Positions 1-41,036 of a stretch of 41,140 nucleotides of DNA are shown here, one piece after another (the stretch's first letter is position 1; every line of letters starts with the position of its first letter). The notes beneath the pieces were generated by a model, which saw only the letters and a program-made list of their open reading frames with translations, did no database searches and was not told the DNA's origin. Source of the stretch: Hydrurus foetidus (taxonomy: Eukaryota). The stretch is taken from contig UYFQ01000174.1 of NCBI GenBank assembly GCA_900617105.1, positions 1-41,140 on the forward strand. Direction: 5' to 3'. The translations under genes were made by a program, and so were the position numbers.

Positions 1-207
1 TGTAGTCCGGATAGGAAGTAGGTCGATAGAAAGAAGGTGTTAGTTAGTTACAGGCTCTAAGCTAGAAGCTAGGATAACTTCTACGAGTAGGCTAGAGCTA
101 GCTAGCAGCTGCGCTAGAGATGTATGTGTACAGTAGGCGGTAGGATCGGATGGATCGGGACTAGGTCCGGTACGGCCCGTAGGCCCGGTATAGCCGGTCC
201 GACCACA
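1..207 (-). repeat. 3' LTR of E1
   Basis: TGTAGTCC...GACCACA; near-identical to 6553-6759; abuts the PPT. Confidence 0.95.
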
Positions 208-221
208 TCACCCCCACTTAT
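208..221 (-). other. Polypurine tract of E1 (ATAAGTGGGGGTGA)
   Basis: Purine-rich tract immediately before the 3' LTR. The same ATAAGTRGGGG core precedes the LTRs of E3, E4 and E5. Confidence 0.85.
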
Positions 222-443
222 CTTTTTTCTGAAGAAAAAGAACCTATGACGCGACCACCACGTTTTGTACAAAAATCTAATACAACTAAAACTAACTAAA
301 GGAAGAATAAAGAAAAAGATTACAAATATGTAAATCTCATAATACATTGAAATGTATAAAAATAAAAATCTATACAAATAGACTGGGTGGTGGGTCGGTC
401 AAGGTGATAAGGTGGGTGCCTAGTACCATGTACTTGCGCACGA

Positions 444-545
444 GACCTCGATACGTAATTATGTCAGATTTTTACTGACTAAAACCATAAAACCTCATAG
501 AGGGAAAATTAGGAAAAATCTTCAAAAGATAATACGTTCGAGATC
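444..545. ncRNA. Conserved structured 3'-UTR element, E1 copy
   Basis: TTATGTCAGATTTTTACTGAC...AATCTTCAAAAGATAA core inside a closing stem; shared with E3, E4 and E5, with compensatory stem changes. Confidence 0.65.
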
Positions 546-551
546 AGCAAC

Positions 552-3500
552 TTAGGCTGATGTCTCAATGTTTTTGGGAATGAAATGTTTCATTTTATTA
601 TCCCGTAAATAATCATGGAGTGCTTCACAGAGCCGTAGTGATTTCCACGGCTCCCATGTATTATGAGAGTCATCGTAGTTGAGCCATTTAACATGGAACG
701 ACATTGTAGTCGGTTTCTTGGTGTCACCAGCGTGACCCAGAACTTTCTCAACCACGAACTCCATGTAATCGCGACGAGCAGTGTCAGCAGGTATATCTAC
801 CTCTGGGTCATAATTGAATATTTTCAAATTTTTGACATGAACACTTCGTGTCTTGTGGTTTACAAGATTAGCGAGAACGTACTCGGACCCCTTAAAGGAG
901 ACAATACAGTAAGGGCCATGCCACTTAGTATGTAATCGAGTTGGAGGTCGATCAGTGTATCGGCATAAGACATATGACCCCACGGGGAACACAGTCGCTG
1001 ATTCAGCTGACGCGGCGTTTTTAGCATCCGCTTTTAACAAAGTTTGAACCGCAGTTTCAAGTACTTTGTCTTGTACACTTATCAAATCTGATATGTACGT
1101 TGATCTTGAATGTGTTCCGACACTTAAGTGTGGAGTGAGAATACCACGATTCAAATCAAGTTTGTTCCCGAACAATAAATGAGCGGGGCAGACACCTGTG
1201 CGTCTATTAACTGAACTGTTAATGATACGTTGCACGAATGGGATTGACTTAGCATATCCCTCAAGGGTTTGTTTATCAAAAACTAAACCTCTTAAGTGTC
1301 TATTCACCTCTTTGTTGACTCTTTCAACAATTGCATTCTCTTGTTTCGAGTAAGCAAGGGTGAGATTATGTGGTGTCCCACAAAGATCTAAGAATTCTTT
1401 GATCAATTCATTTGCGAAATGTGATCCTCGATCAGATCTAATCATATTTGGTGATCCAAATCGACCAAAATGCGCAAGCAAACAGTCAGCTGCTGATTTA
1501 GCATCTGCGTCTGCACACCAGAACAATTCTGTCCATCGTGTGAATGTATCGATGATGACTAGGATATAACCTTTGTCAGGAAATGGACCAATATAGTCAA
1601 CATTTAGCGTATCGAAGATAGCATAATTTGAAGTTGCAAAATGAGACGCATTGATCTTAGGATCTTTTGCACTCAACTTTTGACAACACGGACAGTTCTG
1701 TATGAACGTACGTACATGTTGTTTCATGTGTTTCCATACTTGTTGTAAACTAAACAACCGAGTAAGGGTACGGTCTACGCCGTTGTGACCGACAATTGCA
1801 TTGTGGCACATTTGAATGTATTCTAACTGATCGTCTGAAGCCGGTTCTATGACCGTCAGAGCTGATACAGTGAAAGAAGATGATGAAGTAGGAAGTAATT
1901 CCAATTCTTCTGTTCGTAACGGCAGAGCAATTTCTGTCAGATTAGGACAAAGCCTTGACAGTGCGTCTGCCAAAACATTTGAAGTACCGGGTACGAATAC
2001 CACGGTAAAATCTAGTTCTTGCATAGCAATGAACCATCTCGCCACCATTGAGGTAGGATTTTGTTTCATATATGTTATGTTCAAGTGATCCGTATGGATA
2101 GTGAACGTACGATCTCTGATTAGATAATCGAGTTGTGTACAACAATAGAAGATGGCATAAGCCTCTTTTTGTATCGTAGACCACCTTATTTGTGTGGGTG
2201 TCAACGATTTGCTAATGAAAGCAATTGGTTGCCAAATGGCACCAACAACTTGGAATAAGACCCACCGATACCAAAGTCGGATGCGTCTGTATACAAGCGG
2301 ATGTCTAACTTATTGTCATCAATGAAGTACATTAATGGACAACGAGATATAGCAATCTTTGTGTCAACAAATGAGTTGGTGCTCTTTTGAGTCCAAACTA
2401 CAGCAGAACGTCTCGGAGCAGAGTGATCAATCATATCCTGCATTGGCTTAACCAAAGTGGAATGCATTGGTACAAACTGTCGAAAATAGTTCGCTAAACC
2501 TAAAAATGACCTGAGTAAGGTTAAATTTTTAGGTATAGAAAAGTTTAAAACTGTTTCTATCTTCTCTTTTGACATGGATAAACCATCTTTGTCAACGACT
2601 CTGCCAACGTATTCAATACGTGGAAGGCCGAAACGGCATTTTTTAGCTTTGAGTCTTAGACCCTTAAGTCTAAATCTTGCAAAAACTTTTTCAAGTTAGT
2701 AAGAAACTCTGCTTCACCCTTGCCATATACTATACAATCGTCGAGATACATCTCGCAACAATGATAGATAAGGCCATAGAGGACCGCCGTTACCATCTGC
2801 TCTTGAAAGTAAGAGGGGGCTCGACACGGACCAAAGGGCAGTCTCGTAAACTGAAATACCCCCGCAAAGCATATGAATGCCGTAAAAATGCGGTGTGCGG
2901 GGTGTAACGGTGCTTGATGGTAACCAGCGGTTAAATCCATCACACCAAAAATATCCGGTTTTTTATTACCGATCCTCTCAAAGAGGTGTTTGATATTTGG
3001 TAACGGGAATGAGGCCGGCTTAAGACACCTATTAAGTGGCCGGTAATCGATGCAGGTTCGAAATTTACCGGGTGACTTAGTTACTATTACAGGATGACTG
3101 TAATAAGCGGCATCTGATCGCTCTATAACCCCTGATGCAAGCATCTCGTCAAGGTTTTCTTTGAGAGCAACCTCTTTTGTTGATGACTGGGGACGTACCG
3201 GCGTACGGTTTTCGTCTTTTTCCCACAACTCAAGTGGGATGTTAATCTCAAAGGGTTTAAGTGACGCTGGTTTCTCAGCTAATTGATCACTGAAGATGTC
3301 TGAATATTCAGAACAGAGCTCTCGGAGCTTCCTTTGAAAGCTTTCATCTCCTTCAAAGGTAATCTCTTTGAGGAAATCCTCTGGCCCTTTGGGCAAGTCA
3401 TCTTGACTAGGTTTCTCCGCCAAGAAGGGGGCAAACGTATCTATCTTGCCATCGTCAATCTCGTCAACTGAGAGTGCGACACCACTGGGCCATAAAGGCT

Positions 3501-5990
3501 CAGTGACATAGTCTAAGGTATCAGAGTCCTCAGAAGTGTTTGTAGGGGTGGGAATCTGGTCGCCACCTAGGTGCGGTGTATCACCCGTACGTTTTGCGAG
3601 AATAGTAGTGACACTATTCAGTCGCTCACAACCTACAACACCACAGGGATCTTGGGTCATGACTCCCTCGATTTCCATCTGAGTATCGTTACATGTCGAC
3701 ATTGTATGGACACAAGAGACGTTGCTCTTCGAAGAAGATTGACCATGCAATATGCTCTTCTTGTTTGGATACTCGAAGATCCGTGTGTTTCTCTCTTTTT
3801 AGAGGGTGGTTTACCGCCTGGATATTTCAGCTTGTCGTAGTGAGGTGTTAAAGACTCGACTACGGCTGTATCAGGTTCGGTACCCAACGCTATCATACGA
3901 CGCGTATATTTGTGTTGAAACAACGGATCGAGTTTATCCAAAGCTTCTTTTCTTTCGAATTCGCGTCTGCGAGCATCGCTCTTTCTCTTATTCTCAGCAC
4001 TTAGCTCAGGAGAAATGCCGAATGCAAACGGAGTTAACGTCCAAAAATCATACTTATTTACCGTTTCACGGCTAAATAAAATGTCGATGTCGGTTTTCCG
4101 ATTGACCCTCATGGGTAGGCTGATGCTATGGCATTCACCATCGTAAGAATGAAAAAGGATTTTTAAATCGCAAATTTCGTTATTTAGGTAACATTGGCCA
4201 TCGAGACCGCTACAAACAGTTATGGCTTTAAGAGCAGGATAACATAAGTGAGTAGCATTTAATTTTTCAATCATGTCATATGAAATAAAATTATCGGAAT
4301 AATTGGCCGTATCCATTACGGCCTTCCCCGCGGCGCGCAGCTCGCTAGCTGGGCCTGTCCTGTCCTTATCCTGCACAATAACCGTAACGTTAAGGTGGTG
4401 AGAAGCGAGGGTGGAAGGGGTATGTAAAAATTCTTCACGAATAGGTACAAGTGGCTGCACTTCGAGATGATCATCAGTCAGATTAAAGACATCATCATCG
4501 AATGTGGCAGCCACACAGTCATGGGCAAGGTTCTTACCCTGGTTTTGTCCCGGCTGAGTGTTGGGAGGAGGGTTGTGTCCCTGCGGGGGGTTGTATTTAC
4601 CCTTACCGCCGGACCCACGGCCCTGGTATTGGTTCGCATTGGGGTTTTGATGGCCCCTTTGCTTTCCTCTACCACCCCCCTGGTTACCCTGGTTACCATA
4701 ACCAGATTGGTTCTGGGAGTTTCCTCCTTGACCCTGGTTGGAACGATCTGAACCATCCGAGGTGTTGGAGTGGTTCCCAGAACCATGGCTGTTCTTGGCG
4801 CGCTTGTTGTCGTTACACATCAAGTAAGGTTTAGAACCTCTGGGGTAGAACTGAACTCGTTCCTCGTATCCAGGAAGGACGAGGTTGAGTTGCCATTCAG
4901 AGTACCCCACCGCGGCCCAAGCCATCCCCACTGTAGAACTCTCCCACTCAACTTGGTGATTCGTGTTGGAGTCGGAGTAGTACAGGATGGGGCAGTCTGC
5001 CAACGTGTGCGACGTAGCTCCGCACGACCGGCACGGACGAAACATCGGTACGAGCGGTACTTCCGTGGAAGCACGGACAGAGAGTCCGTGCTGCGTCGGA
5101 ACGTACGAGCTAGGGGTACGCACAGTAGCAGTGACTGATCTCGACGAAGCGGAGGGTGTAGGTGAGGGTGCTTTAGCACTCGCTCTACTCGTTTCCTTCT
5201 TACCAACGTCTGGTGGAACTGCTGATGCAGGAAACGAGTACACCGTGTCCGGGTTGCCATAGCTTTTGATGAGGTTCATCATTGCCCTAGCCTCGGCAAG
5301 AACCTGACCAATGCGTAGCATAGTCGAATACCACGTATGAGGTGGGGTATTGTCAGCAGCTTTCGCTTTCAGGTAATCCTGTTGGATTTGACTACCCTTG
5401 GCTAGGCGCTTCTCCAAAATCAATATGAGCTCAGCATGCTGAGTCTCTGATAATGGTCCCTTAGACCTCTCATAAGTGCTCACAAGTTCGTTGTAACGTA
5501 CGAATGTGGCATTCTCATGATCGTGGTTAGCGATCTGATAATGGAAGGGAACTTGGCTAAAGCTCTCTGCCAGAGTACATTCTCCCAAACCATTTGGCGA
5601 GAAGTACTTTATTATCAGTTTGGCTACCTGAAGTACCGACAATTTAGTCTGCCAATCATGGCGTTGTCGTCTATCGATGATGTTAAATTCAGGATCGATC
5701 ATGATCCTGAAATTAAGTAACTCGATTGCCTGCTTCTGCATGCAATCGGTTAGCTTCATCAACGGGTACCTCTGAGCCTGTTCGTAGAACTCAGTCGCAT
5801 CAGCTTCATCAATGAAGTTATGCCTGAGGACGAACACCTCACCCTGGAGTTGCATCGTCGAGGGGAAAGCTGGGAACAGCGAGTTCGACATTGAGATAGT
5901 CGAATCGTTGAGCGCGGCTAAAGCTGCCAGACGTGCAATCTCCTCCTCGTCCGGATTCGGATCAGGGTTTGGGTTAGGTGGTGATGACAT
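552..5990 (-). pseudogene. E1 gag-pol polyprotein (Gag with CCHC knuckle, protease, RT, RNase H, integrase, chromodomain), broken by three frameshifts
   Basis: Motifs: CRSCGATSHTLADC; VMDTANYS (protease); YLDD (RT); YTDASDFGIG (RNase H); HHCC and D,D,E (integrase); WLNYDDSHNTWEP (chromodomain). Frame breaks near 3750-3800, ~2690 and ~2262; the last two are 1-nt deletions relative to E4. Confidence 0.93.
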
Positions 5991-6552
5991 GTCTAATCAC
6001 TTATCGATGTAAATCTCACTGAAAGTCAATGGAGATCGATAACCCCTGCTCAGAAAAATTTTTCAAGAGCTTCGCCTCGTTCGCAAACGGGTACTGTAAC
6101 GTCAGTAACAACGAATAAAGCAATTCTAACCAACTCTTGAACTGAAAAGTTCTATGGCGTGAAAGCCAAATTTAGAGTGGTAGAAAATATGAGTGACCGT
6201 TAAGGTCAAAGACGTTGCTCAACGTCGACGAAAAGAAGTCTATAGACTAACTTTGTGTCTCTGGTGATGAATCTGTGATTCGATCGACCAGCGGAGCAAG
6301 TCTAAAATGACTTTTGGGAAGGATAAATCAACTTCGACCAAAATGTCAAGTTTGGAAGAGCCCAATGCACGGGGATTCCAAGAAAGCAGTTAATCTGACT
6401 TTCTCTAACTTAGACTAGGTCTTCTGAGCCAATGGCTGCAGAAGAAAACGGCTCGAAAGTCGTTGAGCGAAGGCTCAGAAGTCTTATCTACAGGTTGGGA
6501 CGAGTAGATGGAATGAGAAGTAGCAGAAGAAAGAGTGGACGAATAGCGCTAT
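5991..6552. other. Highly structured ~560-nt 5' leader of E1
   Basis: Near-continuous inverted repeats, e.g. TTATCGAT/ATCGATAA, GAACT-GAAA-AGTTC, GACGTTG/CAACGTC, AGTCTAA/TTAGACT enclosing a multibranch, and CTTCTGAGCC/GGCTCAGAAG. Confidence 0.6.
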
Positions 6553-6759
6553 TGTAGTCCAGATAGGAAGTAGGTCGATGGAAAGAAGGTGTTAGTTAGT
6601 TACAGGCTCTAAGCTAGAAGCTAGGATAACTTCTACGAGTAGGCTAGAGCTAGCTAGCAGCTGCGCTAGAGATGTATGTGTACAGTAGGCGGTAGGATCG
6701 GATGGATCGGGACTAGGTCCGGTACGGCCCGTAGGCCCGGTATAGCCGGTCCGACCACA
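6553..6759 (-). repeat. 5' LTR of E1
   Basis: 207-bp copy of 1-207. Confidence 0.95.
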
Positions 6760-16519: not shown

Positions 16520-17498
16520 ATGATCATCCAGAATAACCTGAATTATTGTGGCAAATACCTCTAGACTATTACAATGGCGATTATCGACTAACGGGTGATA
16601 AATGTGAGTATTTTTGTTTAGAAGAATATGGACGAGAGAGAAGATTGGATAAGTCTCCGATGAATTACACCTTCTTGATTGATAAAACGGTTTACAAAGT
16701 ACTGCCTCAGAGGCTTCTTCGCTTTACTGTTCCACTTAAAATGAAAAGGCACGGATGGGAAGTGGTCATGAGGTTTGAGATCCTGTATAATAAGCAATGT
16801 ATCTATTATATATAGCGGTATTGCGAGAAATTATAAAATGTATAAGTCTCTATTGCGAGTAAATAAATAAAATTGAGTGGATTAGGATAAAGCAGGAAAT
16901 CATTTCAGGGTACATTTATTGCCTGAGGTGTTAGGAGTATGAGGCTGTCAGACATCAAGACATGGAGAATATGCCAGATTGTACAGCTCTTTCATGTGAG
17001 GAACGGACAGAAATAATTGAGTATCGTACTGTAAAATGATTCCACGCTTCTTATTACTAAGCATGTCATGTCACTTCTTGCAATTTAGGGGACGATGATA
17101 TTGGAATTCTTTGAAAGAGGATATGGTAAACAGGATGACAAATCCGACAGCAATTCTGTGCTGTAATCACTTCAATCCTGGCAATCGATCACAATTTTTA
17201 TCTTTTTATCTATTTTCCTCTCTTTCATCTTCATATCAACGGGGTATCAAAAGGAGACGTCAAAGTGCCCCCTCTCCTTTTAATACCCCCTTCTTGTTCA
17301 TATCATCATGTTCTTCATGTGGTTTCCCAAACAAGTAGGGACGGAAAAAATGCCAAAAATCAGTATATGCCTGTCAAAAATACCAAATATCACTCTTGTC
17401 ACGAAGTCACAAAACGAATCAAGAGGGCAGAGGCAGCAGTCAATTTTCGAGTCGTTGGTACAGCTGTTGATCAGTAAACATAAGCTTTTAAAACTGCA

Positions 17499-21017: not shown

Positions 21018-21267
21018 CGTCAGAAATTTAGGAGCCGGGTACCATTTTACCATTTGGCGAATGCACCTTTTGTTGCGTTGGTCGGACCTCAATAATTTTA
21101 CTTATTATTGAGGCCTTCGATGATAAATGATAACCTATGTGAACGGCAGCAGATCAAGAGATGCACCATGCAGGCCCCCAGAGTGCGTTGGGTTCAGTTG
21201 AGTTGTGGAAAAAACAAATAACGCGGTTTCAGATCCTAAATCCAAGCTAACCCCTTGATTCCTCTGA

Positions 21268-21670
21268 TCTTGGTAAAACCGTTCCTTTAGGGATAACTGA
21301 TCCCGGTACTGAACTGGTAGGTTGCTAGTGATTCGTTGAGAATACACCCTGTGAAATGCAAGCCTAGCCAGAGCAGCAGAAAAGTCAACTAGTGTAGGTA
21401 TAATGACGTGATGTCATATAGTCTCTTTTAATAAGAAGTGGTTAGCATGTCAAAACATCCACTTCATCAGCTGTATACTAACTGCTAGTATGCTACTTGG
21501 TGTGATTCATCACTCCAACATTTCATTCCTGATGTGACCGCGGGTTGGTGTATAGTATCAACCGGTCTACAAGGAATCATAAAACGTATGCCTAAGCTAC
21601 AACTATCCGGACTGGATATCGCTCATGATATTATCCCCAAAGGGATTCCTAGTCTACGCATATCCCAACA
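21268..21670 (-). repeat. 3' LTR of the copia element
   Basis: Copy of 26234-26636; preceded on the minus strand by a short PPT, AGGGGTG (21671-21677). Confidence 0.95.
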
Positions 21671-21849
21671 CACCCCTAATGTCATCGACATTCAGTCACA
21701 TGGTTGTTTAGGTATCATGCAAATTATTTATCATCACATGGTCTTAAAACGTGGTAATTATCATAACTAATATAGGTTTCTGCGTAGTTATCATCATAAC
21801 CATATAGTCAAAAATCACGGTGACTTTTTGAGTGTGAGATAAAGAGATG

Positions 21850-24800
21850 TTACTTTTGTCCCATTATTTTCTTGAACATTTTGTCGAAAATCGCACCTTG
21901 CAACGGTTTTGTAAAGTAGTCGGAAGTCATTTCCGCCGTGGGAACATAGACAATGTCCACTGCACCGTTCTTGATATAGTCCGAGATCCAGAATTTCCGG
22001 ATCTCGATGAACCTGGTGGTCTCTGCGGTAGACCGACCTTTCGTGAGTAGTGTGATACAGGATTGGTTATCCTGCTCCAATCGCACTGGTTGTGGATCGT
22101 ATCCTTGAAGGCGGATGAAGTCTGCGAGCCATAATGGGATGTTCATCCCGTCGGACACCGCGATGATCTCAGCCTCCGTGCTCGACTTGGAATTCAGCTT
22201 CTGGACCTTGGAACTCGTGATGAAAAATCCCACCCCTAATGTGACGCACATTCCTGAGGTTGATTTCATGTTGTCGCGATTCGCAAATGCAGCATCAATT
22301 GATACCGTGACTCTTGGTGGGAGGTCAGCTTTGAGTCGTAGGGGTACGTCACGTACGTACTTCGCATAGCTGATGACCCTGTCGAGCTTCTTGTCATCCT
22401 CGTAGGATGGTGCTTTCACTCGTTTTGAGAGTTCGCCCACCACTGTTGTGAGGCTCGGATGTGCACGCGAGCATGTCCATGCAATGGTTGCGGTGTCGGT
22501 GTGATATATTTCTGCATCCTTGGCACTCAACAGCTCACTGTCAGGGGTTCGATCAAACAGGTGAGGAGCACCTGGTGAGTGCGGAATTCCAGCGGGTTTG
22601 GTTCCGCGGTCTTTGTGAGTCTTCTCTCTTGCAGCGACAATGTCTTGGATCATCCCTGCTTGTGAAACTTTCACGTATCCTGTTTCACTGTAGTCCCAGG
22701 TCAGGCCTAGGTACGATACGATAGGCCCCTGTGTTGTCCTGAATTGGCCGTAAACTTTTAGTGTGGGTAGGAACTTCTCCGTGACGTTCATGATCGAACG
22801 CAGGATCTTGTTTCGCTGTGGTTGTGTCAGTTGTGACATGTGCACCCCTGAGAATGTGTCCTTTGCGAGGAGCGATTTGACCTCTGACTCGATGGCGAAT
22901 GCAGTCTTTTCCGGGAAGAGCTTCAGTCCCCGAGTAACTGACATCATGGACCAAACGTGCGGATTGTCGATTTCTTGTGCTTGAGTTGATACTTCTTCCG
23001 CTGTTAAGTTAAGTCGGTCGATTGGTTTCTTCAGTCTGGATGACTTTTCCCTTGGTTCTATGGGTCGAGGTGTGTACTTACGTACGTTCACCGGTGCACT
23101 ATCAAAAGCGTTCTCCTCCGGAATCTCTTCAACGGGCTCCGTTGGTTCCGATATTTCGCCAGAAGTTTCATGTAGGTTTTCTGTGTCTGGAACCGTATCA
23201 GTCTCACCCCGAATCTCCATTGGCGATTGTGTCGGTGGGGATTCAAAACCGATTGGTGCGGTGGGAATTGACGGCGGAAATGGGTCCTGAATGGGTCCGC
23301 GGTCTCCGATTGGTGCCGCTGTCGGTGGTGCTGCACGAGTAATGTTTCCGACGGCATCATTGTCGACATCATTTGTGATGTCTCGGTCGTGGAATGTGAA
23401 GATCGGGTCGATCGAGGTATGCAGCTTGTTCTTTGCCGCCCACCCATTCACGGTAGTGATAACGATGGGTGGGATCGGCAGTACCACATAGTGGTTCGCA
23501 TTGATGGTCGCCCGATTGTCCAACCGAAGGAATGCATGTGTTCCTGTGCCATTCATCTTCGGCTCCAGGTAAAGGCATCCAATCGTGCGCTGGTCCATGC
23601 CATTCGACATGGTGCGGTTGGTGACCTGACAGTAGGTGCCGAAAGGTGGACCGATGTCCATCTTTGTATCAGCCTTTCTCCCGAAGAAGGCCTCAAAGGG
23701 AGATATTTTGTCCGTTCGTGTGGACGAAGGGAACAACAGTAGTTTCTTGGAGCAGCTCAGCACCAAGTGATTCATCATCGCGTCAGCGACTAGGTAGGGT
23801 AGGCTGTGTATGGTGGCCCGAATGGTCTCCTTCAGGTGGCGGATCATCCGCTCCACGATGTGATCATGCTGACCTGGTCCGACGAGAGAGACGGCCACGC
23901 CCATTGCATTCATGTCTCCTGCAAGCGCCGCGATCCCTCGTTCATTGTCGCTGGTGAAGCGGGTGATCTTGATACTGCGGGATCCGATGGTGCCGAACAT
24001 CCTCCTGATGCTTTGTCTCAGGATTGGCGCTGTGAGATTCTCCACGCAAGCAACGAGGACAATGCCAAGAGGATGTGTGATGGAAACCAGGAATGGTTGC
24101 TTATTGACAAACATGACATCACAATGCATGTGTTGCTCATCAGAATCACGGTGACTTTTAAAATCACGGTGACTTTTAAAATCACGGTGACTTTGCAATG
24201 CTGGGAATGGTCGGGCTCGAACTGTTCGCCCTTTCAGAGCAGCGATGTTGGCACCCCAGATCGCAGTTGCTCGATTAACATCTTCAGGAAGGATGTCGCA
24301 GTTGAGGAATGCTCCGGCGTTCAAAGCAGAGATCATCTTGGCGTCGGGTGGGAATCCAAGGCTTGCTTGTAGCCGTCGGGCATCGAAGCTTCGAGCAACC
24401 TCGCGCTTGGAGTACGCTGCCTCATTTGCCGTTGTTGTTGGCAAAGGAGCTGAGAAAAAAGGTCCTCCTGCCTTATTGAGAGCGATGGCGGGGTTGGCTG
24501 ACTCTAATCTCGACTTGTTGGAGCTCTCATGTCGAGGCTCTGGTCGTGATGCAAGATCGCAAACATAGAGTCCACCTCGATGTTGAAAGCGATAGGTTTG
24601 CTTTGCTGTGTGCACCAGGAAAGCATCTTGATCAACATGTCCTCCACGTTGGAACTCCCAGTTGTGTCCTTGCAAAAGGATATCCGAAGCTGAAATGATG
24701 GAGAGCGCCGCCCGATCATCGAAGTGAACGATGCCGATATCACCAAGTCTGCCGACTTTTGTCACTGTCAAGGATCCATGCAAGCCCTTAAACACAGTTG

Positions 24801-26206
24801 GCCGACACGTCCAAATCTCTGAGAGAACATCAGCGCTTGTGATGATTGTGCCGGTGGCACCGGTGTCGAAAATCGCTTCGGTCGATGATGGTTGGATTGA
24901 AGTTCGGGTGGCCTGTAGACTGATTCCGTCACCGTCGTCGGGTGGAGATCCTTTCAACGCGACATTGCATCTTCGATCATCATCTTCCATTTCTTCATCC
25001 TCTTCATCATGCATGTTGCCAAATGATGTGTAATATGAGGAGTGACTGCTCGCCTTGTTTGCCGGCTCTGGATTTTTCTCAAATCGCACCTTTTTCGGCT
25101 CGTCTTTCGCCTTGCTCCGGCACTCAGATTTTCGGTGGCCAAACTTGCCACAGTTGAAACACTCGCCTTCGAACTTTGTTTTTGGCTTGTCTTTGTCAGA
25201 TTCAGCCTTGGTGTCTTTGCCGGAAGGTTTGTCTTTGTGACCCTTGCCCTTCCCCAACTGCTTGCCACCCTTTTTTCCTCGATCTTCAGTCTGCTGCTGA
25301 GCTCCGAATGCTGAATGTGGCGTTGTCGGAGGGAGGGTTGCATTGATATTCTCAATGAATGAAGTCTCAAATCTTGTTGCTCGTAGGATTGCGTCCACGA
25401 GTGTCGCTGGATATATGTCTCGATCCGTTTGCTGTTTGGCATTAATCAGGTACATCTTGTAGCCGTGGTATGCCGGAACTGATCCATCGAGTCCATCAAT
25501 GAAGCGCATTGATTGCTGCTTTGGCTTTGGCTGTTCTTCCACTGGTATTCCAGTCGTGGTGAGTCTTTCAAATGTTTTGATAGCACGCCTGCCATAACTT
25601 AGAATCACCTCGCCATGTTCCATTCTCAGTCCAAACCACTCGCTAAGGGCTTTCTGACGGTCGAGTTCTTCATTTCCATCTGGTCGAGCCGTGACGAGGC
25701 GCTTGATTACACGAAGCAACTCGAGTGGGTCGTCTTCTTCGCAGGCTATGAATGCAGCGTCGACAGCGAGTAGCGAGTTGAGCTGTGCTGAACACATCTC
25801 TCGAATGACTGTGTAGCAGTTCTCCTTGTCGATCCTCTGTTGGGTCAGTAACTTGAGGTACTGGTTGTTCCTGCCGCTGAGTAGTCCCATAAAGATCTTG
25901 TTTTTATCTCCAGTTGGGTCGTTCTCTTCTGATCGCCTCCAGTTCTGCCTCAGAGGCCATCGGTGGTAGGTGCTTCCGGTATGCCGGTGCAACAGTCACT
26001 TTCATCGGATCCTGACAGATTGACTGTAGATCCTGATAGTTATCTCTGCAGTACGCCTTCAGCTTAGCTATGATTGAATCCCACTGCTTGTGGCAATCAT
26101 GGCTGATCTCAACCAATCCTGCGGGTATGGTCCTCTTTTCAAGGGATCCATTTGCACCCTCATCTTTCCTCGGTGGCACACCACCTTTGGAACCTTTTTG
26201 ACTCAT
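21850..26206 (-). pseudogene. Copia gag-pol polyprotein with an N-terminal frameshift (~25930) and an in-frame deletion of the RT core
   Basis: Motifs: CFNCGKFGHRKSEC knuckle; FDTGAT protease; HCDVMF / TSDNE / VERMIR integrase; SIDAAF, STEAE, EQDNQ and SDYFTKPL RNase H. No KARL, YGL or YVDD RT motifs. The ATG at 26206 is in a different frame from the 1380-aa ORF. Confidence 0.9.
24144..24194. repeat. 18-bp tandem repeat x3 (AATCACGGTGACTTTTAA; encodes SHRDFK)
   Basis: Direct reading; the same motif recurs at 21811-21828. Confidence 0.9.
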
Positions 26207-26223
26207 GATAAAGTCTTTAAAGG

Positions 26224-26233
26224 CTTCTTATTA
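26224..26233 (-). other. Non-tRNA primer-binding position TAATAAGAAG, complementary to LTR 26395-26404
   Basis: Directly abuts the 5' LTR; no TGG start; exact 10-nt complement within the LTR. Confidence 0.65.
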
Positions 26234-26636
26234 TCTTGGTAAAACCGTTCCTTTAGGGATAACTGATCCCGGTACTGAACTGGTAGGTTGCTAGTGATTC
26301 GTTGAGAATACACCTTGTGAAATGCAAGCCTAGCCAGAGCAGCAGAAAAGTCAACTAGTGTAGGTATAATGACGTGATGTCATATAGTCTCTTTTAATAA
26401 GAAGTGGTTAGCATGTCAAAACATCCACTTCATCAGCTGTATACTAACTGCTAGTATGCTACTTGGTGTGATTCATCACTCCAACATTTCATTCCTGATG
26501 TGACCGCGGGTTGGTGTATAGTATCAACCGGTCTACAAGGAATCATAAAACGTATGCCTAAGCTACAACTATCCGGACTGGATATCGCTCATGATATTAT
26601 CCCCAAAGGGATTCCTAGTCTACGCATATCCCAACA
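26234..26636 (-). repeat. 5' LTR of the copia element (TG...GA termini)
   Basis: Boundaries fixed by the TSD and by LTR-LTR identity. Confidence 0.95.
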
Positions 26637-26929
26637 TCTGATGTTTTTTTTGAAAATAATCTGGAAATCTGATCCCTCTTTCCTCTCGAGGGTCGAGGGT
26701 CGAGATTTGAGAGAGATCGAAATCAAATCCGCTACCCGCGATGCTACGACCTTCCGTAATGTGATAACTTTGGGGGATGGGTGACACTAAAACAGTATTG
26801 GGGAATCGCGTGGACGCGGTTATCACGCTTGGGTGAACCATAAGGCCGTATCTTCCATGCATTGAATGCGGCACGAATTTTCTGTCTGCAGTACACAGTG
26901 GACGTAGAGATTAAGAGCACTAGAATTGA

Positions 26930-31639: not shown

Positions 31640-31748
31640 CGTGAATGATTATGTCAGATTCTTACTGACAAACCTCCATAAAAAAAATCTCAATTGAAAT
31701 TGAGGCCAATAAAAAATTTAGGAGTAATCTTCATAGATATCATTCACG
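31640..31748. ncRNA. Conserved structured 3'-UTR element, E3 copy
   Basis: Closing stem CGTGAATGAT/ATCATTCACG (includes the pol stop codon); GTCAG-ATTCTTA-CTGAC; AATCTTCA. Confidence 0.65.
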
Positions 31749-34700
31749 GGTTCTCCATTACAGAGGGGGGCGCAAGACGGAACTCTCTTGGAATAACATT
31801 TAACATGTTGTTTTCGCGCAGATACTTATGGAGTTGATCTGTAGAGCGCATGGACTTCCAAGGTTCCCATGAATTATGTGATGAATCATAGTTCAACCAC
31901 TTGACATAAAATTTCATTGTGGATGGAGCTTTTTTATTTCCGATATGTGAAATAACTGCTTCAATGAAAAATTCCATGTAGTCACGACGAGCTGTGTCAG
32001 TCGGAGATTTCTGAGTCGGATTAAACTTAAAAAGTTTCAATTGACTAGCATGAACCTCACGTGTTTTCTTCGTGATAAGATTCTGAATAGTGTATTCACT
32101 TTTATCAAAGCGTATAACTTTGAAAGGGCCAAGCCACTGACAGTGTACCCTAGTCTCTGTTCCCTTAGGGTTGAGAGCTAATACATAAGAATCAATTTGA
32201 AAAACTGTTCTTGGTTCAGTATTAACTGAAACGCGTCTCGCATCAGCAGTCATCAACTGGGTTCTAGCCGCAGTGTTGAGTTGTTGTTGTATAAGCAACA
32301 TATTTGCTATAATAGTCGACGCTCTAGTCGGTAGTAGATTTGGGTCAGGAAATCTAATCAAGATACCTCTATCCAGGTTTAATTGATTTCCGAACAGCAG
32401 ACTAGCTGGTGAAGCTCCTGTACTAGAATGTACAGAACTGTTTATTATTCTCTGCACAAAAGGCAGGCAAAGCTTATAAGCATTAAGATTTGTTAAATCA
32501 AAAGTAAACGCACGTAAGTGTCGATTAACCTCTTTATTAACCCTTTCCACAATGGCATTCTCTTGCTTGGAGTATGCCAGGGTAAGATTGTGGGGGTACC
32601 CGTACGGAGTAAAAATTCCCGTACGGTATCATTCATGAAATGAGATCCCCGGTCTGATCGGATCATGCTGGGTGCACCGAATCTTCCAAAGAATTGGAGT
32701 AAACATTCACATGCAGAATGTGCTGTATTATCAGCACACCAGTAAAGTTCAGTCCAACGAGTGAACGAGCAAATCATGACTAACACATATCCCCCGTCGG
32801 GGTATGGACCTATGTAGTCAATGTTGACTGTATCAAACGGTCTATATGTAGACGTTGTGTATTTGTGAATGTGAACCGGGATTTTGATCACACTCATCTT
32901 TTGACAGCAAGCGCAGGTGCTGATAAAGTCCCTAACATGGGCTTCCATGTCGAGCCATTCTTCGTCTAAACTGGATAGTTTACTAACGGTACGAGCAATG
33001 CCACCATGTCCCACCATGGAATTATGACACATTTCGATTGCCTCGAGTTGTAACTCGGTAACTGGTGCAAGTTCATGCAGAGCAGATAGATGAACTTGTA
33101 GTTCTATCTCTTGAGTAGGTGGATGAAGAACAACTAATTGTGTTAGATTAGGACATAGTCTCGAAAGGGCATCGGCTATGAAGTTGTTTGTGCCAGAAAC
33201 ATAGTTTACTGCGTAATCAAGCTCTTGTAGAGCCATTGACCAACGGTTAACCATTGCAGATGGATCTGAATTGATGAAAATAAGATTCTTGTGATCAGTA
33301 TGAATCATAAATTTCCTATCCCTGAGGAGAGAGTCCAATTGCTTGCAGCAATAGTAAATAGCATAAGCTTCTTTTTGAATGGTTGACCATTTTACTTGTG
33401 TTGCGCTAAGCGACTTACTCACAAATGAGATTGGATTTTTAACTGAATTCACGACTTGGAATAGTACTCCACCTATTCCATAATCGGATGCATCGGTAAA
33501 CAGCTCGATGGGAGACACTTCATCTAAAAAATGAAGAAGCGGGCAGCGGGATATGGCTTTTCTTATTGCAAAGAAAGACTTATCTGCCTGTTCGTTCCAG
33601 TCAATTTTGGATTTTTTACGCCCTTTAGGGTCGATCATCTTTTGAAGTGGAGCGACTATGTCGGCATGAAAGGGAACAAAGTTCCTGAAGTAGTTCGCCA
33701 AGCCCAATAAACTTCGTAAAGAAGTAAGGGTCATGGGTTTCGGGAAATTAAAAACCGTTTCTATCTTCTCTTTAGACATAGAAATGCCTTGGGAAGAGAT
33801 TTGTCGACCGACATGATCGATTTAGGTCATACCAAATCTACATTTCTTTGCTTTAAGCAGTAAACCAAAACAACGAAAACGTCGAAAGACTCGTTCTAGT
33901 CTCTCCAGGAACTCATCCTGACCTCGTGCAAAGACGATACAATCGTCCAAGTACATTTCACATGAAATGTAAATGAGTCCATTGAGGACTATTGTCGCCA
34001 TCATCTCTTGGAAGTAAGAGGGGGCTCTCCGAGGACCGAAGGGTAGTCTGGTGAATTGGTATACACCATAATAGCAAATGAATGCAGTCAGGACCCTGGA
34101 TGCATGATCCATGGGTGCCTGATGGTAGCCTGAAGTTAGATCCATAACTCCGAATATGTTTGGCTGTTGATGGCCGATTCGCTCGAAAAGAGCCCGAATG
34201 TTCGGCAGCGGCCAGCTGGCAGCCTCGGTGCATTTATTCAGATTTCGGTAGTCAATGCAAAATCTGTATAAATCAGCTGTTCTCTGTACTATGACAGGAT
34301 GGCTATAATAAACCGCCGTCGATTCTTCAATGACTCCCGAGCGCAACATCTCATCGATGGCTCGTTTTATCTCACGTTCTTTTCGAACGGTTTGCAGACG
34401 CACGGCAGTCCTATTTCTAGGACTTTCCCATTCTCTCTTGTTGACTTTTATAACAAAGGGAGGAAGTCTAGCAGGTTTAGCTGCTAGTTTATCGCTAAAT
34501 ATGTCTGCGTATTTAAGACAGAGTCGTCTAATAAGCAATTGTTGGTGTTCCGTCCCTTCAATTGTTATTTGTGACAAAAAGTCCTCTGGCCCTATAGGCG
34601 GAGCATTCTGCTTAATGTGATTAGGCAAGAATGGGAGAAAAGTATCGGTCTTCTCATTATCTATCTCGTCTGAAGAGATTACGATACCACTAGGTGTTTC

Positions 34701-35512
34701 CACTCTAGCGTCTGTTTTAGCACTGTCTGCCATTTCACATAAATGTGCTAGGGTGTACGTTCGGAGACGTAGATCACCACCATGAGTCGATACATGGTTA
34801 CAACTGTCACACATAGTTTCAGCCCTAGAGGTGCTCGGTTGACTAGAGCATCCGACATCAAAACAGCGAGCTACTCTGTTAGAGTCTGTTTTGTGGAATG
34901 GCATGGTACTATGACCAGAATGAGGACGTGCCAATTCACCCTTCTCGCCCTCACGTATGGACGGAATGCCCTCCGCAGCTAATAAAACTTCCATTCTTTC
35001 GAATGAGTTTATCACATTAGGCATCCCGATTTCAAAAGGGGTTAAAGTGAAGAAATCATAACTCCTAAGAGTTGGTCGACCCAAAATTAAATCGATGGTG
35101 TTAGGAATAATCCTTACTGTTAAAAATATCGTTTTAATTAACAGAGTGTTTGTGACAAAAATCATGCCTATATCGATTACTTGGTCTCTAACATAACAAG
35201 TGTTATCGAGACCAGAACATATAGTGAGTGGGTTATTAGATGTGTAAACAAAATCATCTCCGTGAATGTTATCTACAAAAGTCTGACTAATAAAGTCGCC
35301 GGGGAGGCTCCCGGTATCCAGGAGAACCTTCGCTTCGCCAGAACCCTTTGGGGCCTATGGCTTTGGGGGTAGTTGGTGGGGTACGTATGGGTTGTGACCC
35401 TGGCCCCATTCCTGACTCTGCTTAGCTGATTTATAAAAATCCAAGCAGACAAAAAATTAGAATCAATGTCTATTTTAGTCAGAGATGCTGCTAGGATAGC
35501 AGATTGGTGCAA
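31744..35512 (-). pseudogene. E3 pol (PR, RT, RH, IN, chromodomain), disrupted
   Basis: Motifs: LLDTGS, YLDD, FTDASDYG, SDRGSHF, WLNYDSSHNSWEPW. In-frame TAA at 33822-33824; frameshifts near 32590 and 35340-35520. Confidence 0.9.
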
Positions 35513-37152
35513 AGGATTACCTTGTTTTTGTTTCTGCGGTTCTCCGCGTGTTGGGCATTTGTAGCGGGGTCGTGCGCCGGGGGCTGCGTACCCTCGAAAC
35601 GAGTTCGCTTAAACTGATTCTTGGGTGGGTATAGCATACCCACTTTGAATTCAGACTGAGGTCTGTTCAGGTGTTGGGTCTCGTACCCTGGAAGTTTGAC
35701 TCCCGCATCATAGGCTTGGAACCCATGGTGAAGCCACAGGTGACCCATCGTGGAGTCCTTCCATAGCAGATGGAGTTCATTGTTGGCGTCTGAAAAGAAC
35801 AGAGCCGGACAGTCTCGGACCTCATGTCCGGCATGTCCACACGAGCGACATGGTGGAGGTGGCGGTTGGGGCCGCATCTGGACCGGAGGGTCATTTGATG
35901 TTCTCCTTGCCAAGGGAGCGGTAGCTTGCATCGTTTGCATAGGTTGAGCAGGGGGAGGGAGAGGCAGTGCTGCTAGTGCTGATTTAGCATAGACAGCAGC
36001 AGAGAATGATCTCTGTTCAGGTATGATCATCTGTTGTGCTTTTGGTACCTGGGTTACTCGCTCATCATAGCGGCTCTCTCTCGAAGAGTAAGAGTGTCTC
36101 CCAACGGGGTCACCGTAGTTAGCGACTTCTTTGAGAAGCTTACGTACGTGTCCGATGCACGTTCCAAAACGGATGAATGCAGACTCCCAGGTCTCATTCG
36201 CAATGGGTTTACCATTGTTACCCTTCACCCTGAAATAATCGTTTTTTAGTTGACTATCAGGTTTGAGTTTTTTCTCAATCGTTACTATCAGTGCAGCATG
36301 CTGCTCTGGGGTGATTGGTTGGGTGTTCTCGTAAGTCGCTGTAAGCGACTTGAGTTTCATGAAAGTTTCCCTCTCGTAGGTCTCATTCGTGAAAGAAAAA
36401 TTAATTTCAATTGACGCGAAGTTCTCTACGAGAGTCCGACCCAGATCATTTTTGTCGCCAAAATATTTGATTATGATGTTCGCAGCCTGTTTGACTGTAA
36501 CATGGTTATACCATGTGGAAAACTTATCTTTGGGGAGTGTAGTAAACTCTGGGTCGCTTGCAAAAGCGTATTGTATGACATAGGTCGCAGGGTCGACGAC
36601 GACCTGGTGCGTAAAAAAGTTGTCATGCCATTGATTGGCCTGATTTTGAAACTTCGCAGCTTGTTCTCCCGTAATGTTCGGGGTATCAATGATAAACAGC
36701 GGTTTCTGGAGGTTTAATCCACCGGTAATTCTCTGTTTAAAAGCACTTGCAACCTGCTCCATATTGTACTGAGGAGTACGGAGTGGAACATCGACTACGA
36801 TGGGAACGAGGGTCGACTGCCACACGTTTTCGATAATCGGGGCGACTGTACTTTCGCCAGCTTCGCCACGCATCGATGCCTGTTGACACAGTTCAGGTGA
36901 GGTCAAGGGCCTATCGGGGTTACTAGTGCTACTAGAGCTACTAGACGAGTTACTCGGGCTCGATTTACTCGGAGAGTTCTCGATATCACTCTCTTCAGAG
37001 TAATCGTAATTGTCTCGTGGTATTTCTCCACCATCATCCAAGTCAGGTAGCCCATGACGGTGTGAATTGGAAGGAACGGCGTCAATTTCCATTGACTCCT
37101 CTCCGGTCTCATACGGAGTCTCTGCTAAATAATCCGCAGGTAAATTTGACAT
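35491..37152 (-). CDS. E3 Gag (553 aa)
   Basis: CRSCGHAGHEVRDC knuckle; distant similarity to E1 Gag (DPEF, IIKYF, QHA.LI, YG.P, D.N). Confidence 0.88.
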   Translation of the reverse strand: MSNLPADYLAETPYETGEESMEIDAVPSNSHRHGLPDLDDGGEIPRDNYDYSEESDIENSPSKSSPSNSSSSSSSTSNPDRPLTSPELCQQASMRGEAGESTVAPIIENVWQSTLVPIVVDVPLRTPQYNMEQVASAFKQRITGGLNLQKPLFIIDTPNITGEQAAKFQNQANQWHDNFFTHQVVVDPATYVIQYAFASDPEFTTLPKDKFSTWYNHVTVKQAANIIIKYFGDKNDLGRTLVENFASIEINFSFTNETYERETFMKLKSLTATYENTQPITPEQHAALIVTIEKKLKPDSQLKNDYFRVKGNNGKPIANETWESAFIRFGTCIGHVRKLLKEVANYGDPVGRHSYSSRESRYDERVTQVPKAQQMIIPEQRSFSAAVYAKSALAALPLPPPAQPMQTMQATAPLARRTSNDPPVQMRPQPPPPPCRSCGHAGHEVRDCPALFFSDANNELHLLWKDSTMGHLWLHHGFQAYDAGVKLPGYETQHLNRPQSEFKVGMLYPPKNQFKRTRFEGTQPPAHDPATNAQHAENRRNKNKVILCTNLLS

Positions 37153-37156
37153 CAGC

Positions 37157-37364
37157 TGTAGTCCTGATGGAGAAGAAGATGGGTAGGAGAGCGGGTTGTG
37201 CTTAGGTGACAGACTATGCTAGAAGCTAGGTAACTTCTACGAGTAGGCTGCAGCTAGCTAGCTAGTCGTGGTAGGGCTGTATGTGTACTGTAGGCGGAAG
37301 GATCGGGTGGATCGTGACAAGGTCCGGTACGGCCCGTAGGCCCGGTATACCCGGTACGACCACA
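37157..37364 (-). repeat. 3' LTR of E4
   Basis: TGTAGTCC...GACCACA, 208 bp, alignable to the E1 LTR. Confidence 0.9.
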
Positions 37365-37574
37365 TTTCCCCCACTTATCTCTTTTTTGAAGAAATCTAAT
37401 CTATGACGCGACCACCACGTTCAAAAATATAATAACTAACAATAACTAAGAAAGGAAAAGAAAATTTAACGAAAACTAAAATGAAAAATATAATAAAGAA
37501 TATTTACAAAATGAAACTGTGGTGGGTCGGTCGACGAGAAAAGTGGTGCCTAGTACGTAAGTACGTGTGCCCGA

Positions 37575-37677
37575 GGCCTCGATACGTAATTATGTCAGAT
37601 TTTTACTGACTAAAACCATAAAACCTCCATCGAGGGAAAATTAGGAAAAATCTTCAAAAGATAATACGTTCGAGATC
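37575..37677. ncRNA. Conserved structured 3'-UTR element, E4 copy
   Basis: Nearly identical to E1 444-545, although the distal 3' UTR has diverged. Confidence 0.65.
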
Positions 37678-37684
37678 AGTATTC

Positions 37685-40465
37685 TTAGACTGATGCCTCA
37701 AGATTCTTGGGGATAAAGTGTTTCATTTTATTGTCCCTCAAGTATTCATGGAGTGCTTCACAAAGCCGTAGGTTTTTCCACGGCTCCCATGAATTATGAG
37801 TGTCATCATAATTAAGCCATTTGACTTTGAATGACATTGTCGTAGGCTTCTTTTTGTCACCTGAGTGACTAAGAACCTTTTCCACTACAAATTCCATGCA
37901 GTCACGACGAGCAGTGTCAGCAGGTACATCGACCTCTGAATCATAATTAAATTTTTTTTAATTTTTAATATGCACACTTCGTTCCTTGTGTGTCACAAGG
38001 TTTGCGAGGATATACTCGGATCCTTTGTAGGAGATAACACGGTACGGGCCATGCCACGTAGTGTGTAACCGAGTAGGCGGTCGATCTGTGTAACGACATA
38101 AAACATATGTCCCTATAGGGAACACTGTCGCACACTTAGCTGATGCCGCGTGTTTAGCGTCTGCTGACACTAAAGCTTGAACAGCTGAATCAAGGACCTT
38201 GTCCTGAACGCTGATCAAGTCCTCAATGTATGTTGATCTAGAATGTGTATTCACACTTAAGTGTGGTGTTAAAATACCACGATTCAAGTCAAGCTTGTTT
38301 CCGAACAGTAAATGTGCGGGCGCAACTTTAGTGCGTCTATTAACTGAACTGTTAATGATGCGTTGCACAAATGGGATTGACTTAGCATATCCCTCTAGGG
38401 TCTGTTTATCAAAAACAAGACCTCTTAGGTGTCTATTTACCTCTTTGTTGACTCTCTCAACAATCGCATTTTCCTCTTTCGAGTATGCGAGGGTTAAATT
38501 ATGTGGCGTACCACAAAGATCTAAAAAATCTTTTATTAAATCGTTTGCGAAATGGGATCCTCGATCCGATCGTATCATGTTTGGCGAGCCGAAACGGCCA
38601 AAATGAGAGAGTAGGCAGTCGGCCGCTGATTTTGCGTCTGCATTTGCACACCAAAATAGTTCAGTCCAACGTGTGAACGTGTCGATAATGACAAGGATAT
38701 AACCTTTGTCTGGGAATGGACCGATATAGTCAACATTCAGCGTATCGAAGATAGCATAATTCGACGTTGCAAAGTGAGACGCATTGATCTTAGGATCTTT
38801 TGCGCTCAGCTTTTGACAGCACGGACAGTTCTGTATGAACGTACGTACATGTTGTTTCATGTTCTTCCAAACTTGTTGTAGACTGAACAACCGAGTAAGG
38901 GTACGATCTACACCATTGTGACCAACAAACGCATTGTGGCACATTTGGATGTATTCTAACTGATCGTCTGACGCTGGGTCGATAGCTGTCAAAGCTGACA
39001 CAGTGACCGACGACGACGAAGTTGGAAGTAATTCCAATTCCGTTATTCGTAACGGTAATGCGATTTCTGTCAAGTTAGGACATAATCGCGACAATGCGTC
39101 GGCTAAGGCATTTGACGTGCCAGGTACGAAGACAACCGTAAAATGAAGTTCTTGCATAGCAATGAACCATCTTGCTACCATTGAGGTAGGGTTTTGTTTC
39201 ATATACGTGATATTCAAATGATCAGTATAGATTGTGAATGTACGATCTCTGATTAAATAATCGAGTTGTGTACAACAGTAGAATATAGCGTACGCTTCTT
39301 TCTGTATAGTTGACCACCGTATTTGTGTTGGTGTCAATGATTTGCTTATAAAAGCTATTGGTTGCCAAATGGTATCAACCACTTGGAAAAGGACACCGCC
39401 GATTCCAAAATCAGACGCGTCTGTATATAATCGGATATCCAATTTATTGTCATCAATGAAGTACATTAATGGACAACGAGATATCGCGATCTGTGTATCG
39501 TGAAAGCTGTTGGTACTTGTTTGAGTCCATACAACGGCCGAACGTTTCGGTGCAGAATGATCTATCATATCTTGCATTGGTTTAACCAAAGTTGAATGCA
39601 TCGGTACAAACTGTCGAAAATAGTTCGCCAATCCTAAGAATGATCTTAACAAAGTTAAGTTCTTAGGTATAGAAAAGTTTAACACTGTTTCTATTTTTTC
39701 TTTTGACATGGATAAACCATCTTTGTCAACCACTCTGCCAACGTATTCAATACGAGGTAAACCAAAGCGGCACTTTTTGGCTTTGAGTCTAAGACCCTTA
39801 AGTCTGAATCTTTCAAAGACTTTATTCAAGTTCTTAAGAAACTCTGCTTCACCCTTGCCATATACTATACAATCGTCGAGATACATCTCACAACAATGAT
39901 AGATAAGGCCATAGAGGACCGCCGTTACCATCTGCTCTTGAAAGTAAGAGGGGGCACGACACGGACCAAAGGGCAGTCTCGTGAACTGAAAAACCCCCGC
40001 AAAGCATATAAACGCTGTGAATATGCGGTGTGCGGGGTGTAACGGTGCTTGATGGTAACCCGCGGTTAAATCCATCACACCAAAAATATCCGGTTTTTTA
40101 TTACCGATCCTCTCAAAAAGATGTTTGATATTCGGCAGGGGAAAAGAGGCGGGAGTCAGGCACTTATTAAGTGGCCGGTAATCGATGCAGGTTCGAAATT
40201 TACCGGGTGACTTAGTTACGATTACAGGATGACTGTAATAAGCAGCATCTGACCGCTCTATAACCCCCGACGCAAGCATCTCATCGAGATTCTCCTAAGA
40301 GCAACCTCCTTAGTCGATGACTGGGGACGTACCGGCGTACGGTTTTCGTCTTTTCCCACAACTCAAGGGGATGTTAATCTCAAAAGGTTTGAGTGACGCT
40401 GGTTTCTCAGCTAACTGATCACTAAAAATGTCTGAATATTCAGAACAGAGCTCTCGGAGCTTCCT
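37685..40465 (-). pseudogene. E4 pol fragment (RT, RH, IN, chromodomain)
   Basis: 773-aa ORF highly similar to E1 Pol; frame break at ~37958 and 1-nt deletions at ~40295-40370. Confidence 0.92.
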
Positions 40466-40924
40466 CCAGACCTGAAAGGCAAAAGAGAAGGGAAATCTAA
40501 AGGCTAAAAGGAGCTAGTTAGTTAGGGATGCAGACAGAAGGTACGCTAGTAACTTCTGCAAAGCAGCACAAACTAGCTAGTGACTGATAGTCGTGGCTGT
40601 GAACACGAAGGTACTAAGGTGGAAACAGCATCTAATCGGCTGAATGGGGTAGCAGACCCTGAGGGAGCCACACTACCCCTACTTATCTCTCGTTTTCTCA
40701 TTTCTCTCTCCCTCTCCCTCTCTCTCTCCCTTGGTGAGTCTCTAGCTACAGTGTGTAACAAAACAAATATGACTCAAGCGTGATAAAAAAAATGCAGAAA
40801 AAAATAATAAAAAAATACAAAAATGCAGTAATAAATACGTACGAAGTATACAGATATTTGTACATGTGAGAGTTTGGGGGAGTGAGAAACGAGAGTGCCT
40901 AGATGTGTTGTAACTACGTGTTCC

Positions 40925-41021
40925 CCTACACATTTATGTCAGATTTTTACTGACTAAACCTCCTGAAAAGCAACTTAAAGTTGTAAAAATGAGGAGGAAT
41001 CTTCAAAAGATAATGTGTAGG
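40925..41021. ncRNA. Conserved structured 3'-UTR element, E5 copy
   Basis: Closing stem CCTACACAT/ATGTGTAGG; GTCAG-ATTTTTA-CTGAC; CCTCCT/AGGAGG; GCAAC/GTTGT; AATCTTCAAAAGATAA. Confidence 0.65.
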
Positions 41022-41036
41022 TCGTTCCTTGGGAAC

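Follow-up and report, generated by a model that had tools for sequence, protein, structure and literature searches.

A Ty1/copia element of Hydrurus foetidus with a predicted self-priming signature shared by diatom-type relatives

The element and its surroundings

The window considered here is a stretch of 41,140 nt, contig UYFQ01000174.1 of Hydrurus foetidus. On its minus strand lies an LTR retrotransposon of 5.4 kb, a copia element that carries at its left end a predicted signature of self-priming. Its parts are the following:

26637..26641, minus strand: target-site duplication TCAGA, left of the element
26234..26636, minus strand: 5' LTR of 403 nt (TGTTGG...CCAAGA), with terminal GA rather than CA and one mismatch to the 3' LTR
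26403..26407, minus strand: initiator-like CCACT, one base off the diatom consensus TCAHW; predicted transcription start at 26405 or 26404
26395..26404, minus strand: predicted self-primer CTTCTTATTA, exact complement of the primer-binding site
26224..26233, minus strand: primer-binding site (PBS) TAATAAGAAG, flush with the LTR end
26218..26255, minus strand: U5 TAAAGG (26255-26250) and leader CCTTTA (26223-26218), with a GGTTTTACC hairpin (26246-26238); the letters are present, the stems putative
21850..26206, minus strand: gag-pol, with Gag (CCHC knuckle), protease, integrase, RT and RNase H in the copia order
21671..21680, minus strand: polypurine tract ATTAGGGGTG, abutting the 3' LTR
21268..21670, minus strand: 3' LTR of 403 nt, with a second copy of the primer word at 21438-21429
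21263..21267, minus strand: target-site duplication TCAGA, right of the element

The assignment to Ty1/copia follows from two LTRs (ending in GA, not CA), a 5-bp target duplication, a polypurine tract and the order Gag-PR-IN-RT-RH, as aligned to intact relatives. The integrase was called from alignment motifs rather than a Pfam hit. Protein P0002, an intact relative, matches only RVT_2 and zf-CCHC in Pfam. Because the LTRs differ at one base (26315) and TCAGA stands on both sides, the insertion is young. The LTR pair and the flanking duplications define the boundary of the LTR, so its end is fixed independently of the pairing claimed below. Within the 5' LTR, TATAC lies at 26443-26439 and ATTAAA overlaps the primer word; the ATG of gag comes 17 nt after the PBS. 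Both LTRs end in AGA (26236-26234 and 21270-21268), where ACA is usual among the relatives described below, and a loose contig end in sequencing run X1 suggests an AGA end in a diverged relative too.

The gag-pol frame is damaged. There is a frameshift near 25926, where contigs from three sequencing runs read differently, and alignment to P0002 shows that the RT core is gone near 22750, a loss of about 181 codons (P0002 residues 1151-1331). Owing to the frameshift and the deletion, this copy is, to judge from its reading frames, non-autonomous and would need proteins from intact copies. The RT deletion is common to protein P0001, which is 99% identical and may be the same locus, and contigs of run X12 diverge at the deletion point, about 22750. 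In that run the depth is about 120 in the flanks and 3,100-5,400 in internal contigs, which suggests tens of copies of the element, though depth is not copy number. As to the host, a neighbouring gene is 74% identical to a protein of Ochromonas (Chrysophyceae), against 46-47% for two diatom-named matches; judged by this one gene, it is probably a chrysophyte.

Other retrotransposons share the window. A chromodomain gypsy element (1-6759) has, at the position of a PBS (6553-6542, minus strand), the 12-nt palindrome AATAGCGCTATT, counting the last A of the LTR. It has no TGG there and no LTR self-complement above 6 nt, and is reminiscent of the conserved hairpin site of GalEa. Two more gypsy elements lie within 31649-41028, where the gag of the second element begins right beside an LTR (37364-37158) related to that of the first gypsy element, which suggests nested insertion.

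A primer-binding site complementary to the element's own LTR

Immediately beyond the LTR, with no gap, comes TAATAAGAAG (26233-26224), which is perfectly complementary to CTTCTTATTA (26404-26395) within the LTR. The match of 10 bp can be extended on neither side, and it is the 3'-most base of the LTR word that pairs with the base just past the LTR. A sequence-only reading of this stretch had pointed out the PBS and the LTR word, along with TATAC, ATTAAA, TAAAGG, CCTTTA and the hairpin, and all of them lie where it placed them. It had also noted that the element has no TGG-type PBS, which holds as well, and had put the chance of such a 10-mer at roughly 4e-4. The 10-mer is present in 13 of 20,000 dinucleotide shuffles of the LTR, near that estimate, or in 29 of 20,000 if offsets of 0-5 are allowed. 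No tRNA gene occurs within the 41,140-nt window.

Folding is consistent with the pairing. RNA running from 26404 to 26190 folds with the primer helix (z = -3.6; 0 of 200 shuffles are as stable). Much depends on where the RNA starts: when it begins at 26404-26420, the pairs of the helix have probabilities of 0.5-1.0, which drop to 0.1-0.76 if it begins at 26450-26500 and almost to 0 if it begins at the left end of the LTR. The helix is thus rarer in predicted folds of RNAs that start upstream. The duplex (10 bp, about -8.4 kcal/mol) is shorter than the 14-15 typical of the clade to which the element belongs. A U3 sequence, GAAGTGG (26430-26424), is complementary to CCACTTC (26407-26401), which overlaps the initiator and the start of the primer; pairing of the two could hide the primer copy in the 3' R. 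A hammerhead ribozyme in the LTR was considered and rejected, an Rfam search giving only two chance-level matches.

Taken by itself, a match of 10 nt in a single copy would not survive a genome-wide search. It is the relatives whose sequences remove the doubt.

Pairing is kept among relatives while the letters change

Relatives came from a metagenome scan covering 11 of 64 parts, in which 566 of 606 stretches were confirmed and the best 80 kept, yielding 78 loci. Their best segments are 25-42% identical in protein to P0002. At 33 of the 78 loci gag homology begins no more than 2.2 kb beyond the end of RNase H, so that an LTR and a PBS lie between, and at each such junction the longest inverted match was sought with no assumption as to where the LTR ends. 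In 31 of the 33 it begins at the LTR end, at a distance of 0-1 nt from a terminal [AT]ACA or AGCA; 30 of these come from the junction scan and one, L077, was seen separately since the junction window stopped short. The two others, L017 and L035, fail in this respect and show the weakest gag matches of the 33 (E about 3e-6). An inverted match of 18 nt does occur at L035:1085-1185, with TC(A) before it; an LTR end of the CAACA type is missing there, and this may be a variant junction.

A larger set of 45 junctions, the Hydrurus element included, collapses to 40 distinct PBS sequences. Since this set was picked after the matches had been seen (four junctions by eye, six LTR ends corrected by 2 nt) and includes the Hydrurus element, 31 of 33 is the unbiased count. 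A match of at least 10 nt with the element's own LTR is found for 38 of the 40 PBS sequences (median 14), as against 2 of 1,560 pairs when LTRs are swapped, or 33 of 1,560 with G-U allowed, it being understood that related elements are kin and not independent samples. Any two PBS sequences agree, in the mean, at 5.8 of 14 bases. Because the letters differ between relatives, inheritance alone does not explain the matches. None of the 40 has TGG in the first 6 nt after the LTR, so that the lack of a TGG-type site extends to the relatives. L018 keeps 14 pairs through two G-U wobbles, while L071 matches its own LTR over only 9 nt. In a control, 0 of 66 [CT]AACA sites in 24 other loci reach 10 nt. 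The pairing is also present in four linear contigs (L015, L020, L039 and L056). No complement was found for the LTR-like end of L006, whose LTR may be incomplete; L041, L054, L067, L069 and the first L036 segment hold too little LTR to judge. Predicted primers across the clade are 10-19 nt long, with the LTR word about 60-210 nt upstream of the PBS. To go by these comparisons, the pairing is kept while the letters change, and is a real feature of the whole clade. The sequence-only reading had suggested self-priming and proposed looking for covariation in related families; both the 31 of 33 loci and the contrast between own and swapped LTRs strongly support it.

The covariation rests on distant relatives, because the searches for the close subfamily (57-100% protein identity) yielded nothing that includes a 5' junction: three viral-contig scans and a first metagenome scan came up empty, and a scan of genome contigs gave one locus, without that junction. 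Nearer at hand are the contigs of four sequencing runs, which were aligned to 26170-26470. Diverged copies in these runs align mostly to 26355-26433, around the primer word, and no substitution is listed at 26383-26408. One variant falls in the PBS, at 26229 (depth 161 of 11,820), and would replace an A-U pair by G-U. In run X1, loose contig ends read as if the LTR word, with TCA before it, were longer by one base and the PBS by one base complementary to it. Lying on two different contigs, they hint at a closer relative with a matched extra base.

Ten relatives have a small ORF of about 100-140 aa between PBS and gag (L009:3316, L021:5480, L024:1221, L025:6436, L029:1390, L037:5397, L051:2581, L057:1599-1916, L060:1619 and L063:2184), broken in L021 and absent from the Hydrurus element. 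Its product has a coiled-coil-like start and a small beta-barrel-like end, and 2 of 6 tested pass the cut-off of Pfam MS_channel_2nd.

Placement of the clade

A tree of 90 RT/RNase H rows was built by a quick IQ-TREE search, with SH-aLRT as the only measure of support. The rows comprise the 45 self-complementary junctions, 32 selected relatives and 13 distant copia proteins, one of them named from a plant. All 45 self-complementary rows fall on one side of a branch with SH-aLRT 97, together with proteins of Fragilaria crotonensis. The Hydrurus element groups with its own subfamily on a long branch, inside the clade that holds diatom elements. The tree has no labelled TAR or named CoDi rows, and four outgroup rows are long-branched; read with that in mind, the clade is probably not TAR, the plant copia lineage with predicted self-priming, and an origin of self-priming independent of TAR is likely.

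Signals for the start of transcription

If the LTR word is to serve as primer, then the transcript should begin at its 5' edge. In 37 of 40 PBS types a CA lies 2 nt or less from the 5' edge of the duplex; the background frequency of CA is 0.058. The sequence TCAHW, proposed as a diatom initiator with +1 on H (PMC4686930), fits 27 of the 37 CA-bearing elements; the motif is a common one, present in 68% of upstream regions of P. tricornutum (PMC4686930). From the A of this CA to the end of the predicted primer, 23 of 40 elements measure 15 nt, the Hydrurus element, L003 and L023 measure 11 nt, and L004 measures 10 nt. A CA at the duplex edge combined with a mostly fixed spacing is what a start site plus a measured cut would give, and I infer such an arrangement here. 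By the same signals, the Hydrurus transcript is predicted to start at 26405 or 26404.

Two other supports offered by the sequence-only reading did not carry over to the relatives. The first is the TATA box as evidence for the start site: TATA occurs 13 times in 36 upstream regions of relatives and has no fixed position there, whereas the initiator-like CA does have one. The second concerns the stems that Lin and Levin reportedly found to be needed in Tf1, one between U5 and the leader and another at a U5 inverted repeat. The Hydrurus element has letters that could form their equivalents, but its 6-bp U5-leader pair and 3-bp hairpin are no more than chance would give, and there is no enrichment across 39 relatives. 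A U5-leader pair of at least 6 nt is found in 2 of 39 own combinations and in 6.2% of cross pairs, duplex energies do not differ between own and cross (p = 0.29), and U5 ends are no more structured than shuffles (mean z -0.21 across relatives). A pair between TAAAGG and CCTTTA would cross the primer helix, and such crossing is beyond the model of the folding program.

A model for priming, and its alternatives

I propose that the Hydrurus element and its clade prime minus-strand synthesis from their own RNA, much as Tf1 does. What the sequences themselves display is that PBS and LTR word are complementary, in register with the LTR end, that the two covary across the clade, and that an initiator-like CA stands at the 5' edge of the duplex; on these grounds I hold the proposal, with the start site, duplex formation in vivo, cleavage, enzyme and priming that it entails, to be very probable. 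The transcript would start at the initiator, 26405 or 26404, and the RNA would fold back so that its first 10-11 bases pair with the PBS that adjoins the LTR. Cleavage where this duplex ends, probably by the element's own RNase H as in Tf1, would then free a 3'-OH primer. RT would extend it through U5 and what remains of R, then transfer to the R copy at the 3' end, and that copy would restore the first bases that were lost.

An alternative view is that the helix between LTR and PBS is real and selected, but for RNA folding, packaging, dimerisation or control of translation, the primer being something else: a protein, a host small RNA that binds elsewhere or a tRNA at a hidden site. Covariation, after all, proves pairing and not priming, the accessory stems of Tf1 are not conserved, and fungal GalEa copia elements carry, where a PBS would be expected, a conserved hairpin that is not known to take part in priming (PMC5445492). 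It is hard to see, on this view, why the helix should start flush with the LTR end, where the 3' end of a primer must lie to make the LTR end, why its other end should lie at an initiator-like CA, mostly at a fixed distance, and why 40 of 40 elements should have no TGG site after the LTR. I regard such a helix without priming as improbable.

One might also grant that the word primes but suppose that it does so by a different route: in trans from a second genome copy, from the 3' R copy, or after a cut by a host nuclease. The word does stand in both LTRs, and the cutting step may well differ from that of Tf1, given that primer length varies (10-19 nt) and there is no conserved scaffold of the Tf1 type. 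But the intramolecular helix is predicted to dominate if the RNA starts near 26405, a primer cut from the start of U5 would by reasoning leave strong-stop DNA without R for strand transfer, and Tf1 uses its own RNase H (PMC7175516). These routes seem very unlikely. As for a chance match in the Hydrurus copy, with a host tRNA fragment or other small RNA as the true primer, the 10-mer does occur once elsewhere in the window (17047-17056), but each of 40 different PBS sequences matches the LTR of its own element rather than that of another, a pattern which no conserved set of tRNAs could follow, so that, to go by the sequences, this reading is close to refuted.

Self-priming in the manner of Tf1 may be part of a wider claim, towards which I lean: that the whole diatom-type copia clade, from diatoms to chrysophytes, is tRNA-free, a third and independent invention in which RNase H would cut an RNA-RNA duplex 10-15 nt from the start of the RNA, without the U5 scaffolding of Tf1.

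If this model is right, then a large clade of algal copia elements is independent of host tRNAs, and self-priming arose at least three times, in Tf1/sushi, in TAR and in the Hydrurus/diatom clade. Three origins would suggest that RNase H readily evolves the ability to cut an RNA-RNA duplex as a side activity. The pairing of PBS and LTR would amount to a sequence rule that predicts the start site of each element. Should CoDi elements of Phaeodactylum share the signature, self-priming in copia could be tested in a transformable alga. There is a practical consequence as well: pipelines that keep only elements with a detected PBS, as in a study of Cyclotella (PMC7466962), may discard the clade.

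Comparison with known systems

The diatom lineages CoDiI and CoDiII are copia elements distant from Ty1 and Copia (Maumus et al. 2009, PMC2806351; further literature in PMC5029228 and PMC7466962). The Hydrurus clade likewise holds diatom proteins, those of Fragilaria crotonensis, while the host of the Hydrurus element is probably a chrysophyte. The passages of PMC2806351 give no priming mechanism for CoDi, and those of PMC1940013 do not touch on a PBS or self-priming. A search that had most subscription papers, Repbase and GyDB pages outside it found no paper on self-priming in copia elements of diatoms or other stramenopiles.

The fungal GalEa elements (PMC5445492) are also copia elements that have no tRNA PBS. 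Their Conserved Hairpin Site is a local palindrome for which the authors found no LTR complement, whereas the PBS in the Hydrurus clade pairs with a word in the LTR.

The sequence-only reading took the mechanism to be known only from Tf1/sushi, but it had already been predicted for the plant Ty1/copia lineage TAR (Houba, Osr-1, Fourf). There the criterion was a complement of at least 10 nt starting 0-5 nt after the 5' LTR, and self-priming was predicted for 89% of 203 TAR elements (Neumann 2019, PMC6317226, which cites an earlier proposal of self-priming for Houba and Osr-1). By the same criterion self-priming is predicted for the Hydrurus clade. TAR is a lineage of plants, placed in the GyDB Tork group among tRNA-primed lineages (PMC6317226); the host of the Hydrurus element is not a plant. 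Self-priming in copia is therefore not new as a prediction, and what is added here is a separate, diatom-type clade with the Hydrurus element in it.

The closest mechanistic parallel lies outside copia. Self-priming in Tf1 was shown by experiment, and that of the Hydrurus clade is predicted from sequence. Tf1/sushi elements belong to Ty3/gypsy, whereas the Hydrurus element has the copia order, with RVT_2 in an intact relative and no chromodomain match of its own. The U5-leader and U5 hairpin stems said to be part of the Tf1 system are not conserved in the Hydrurus clade. The placing of the site itself is the same: in Tf1 and Tf2 of Schizosaccharomyces pombe, Tj1 of S. japonicus and the Tf1/sushi/Tcn1 chromoviruses, the PBS is flush with the LTR and complementary to the word at the 5' end of the RNA, as predicted for the Hydrurus element. 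Self-priming in Tf1 (PMC7175516, PMC4600332, PMC5341516) employs a primer of 11 bases (PMC7175516, PMC4600332), freed by an RNase H cut (PMC7175516), and the primer predicted here measures 10-11 nt in the Hydrurus element and mostly 14-15 nt across its clade.
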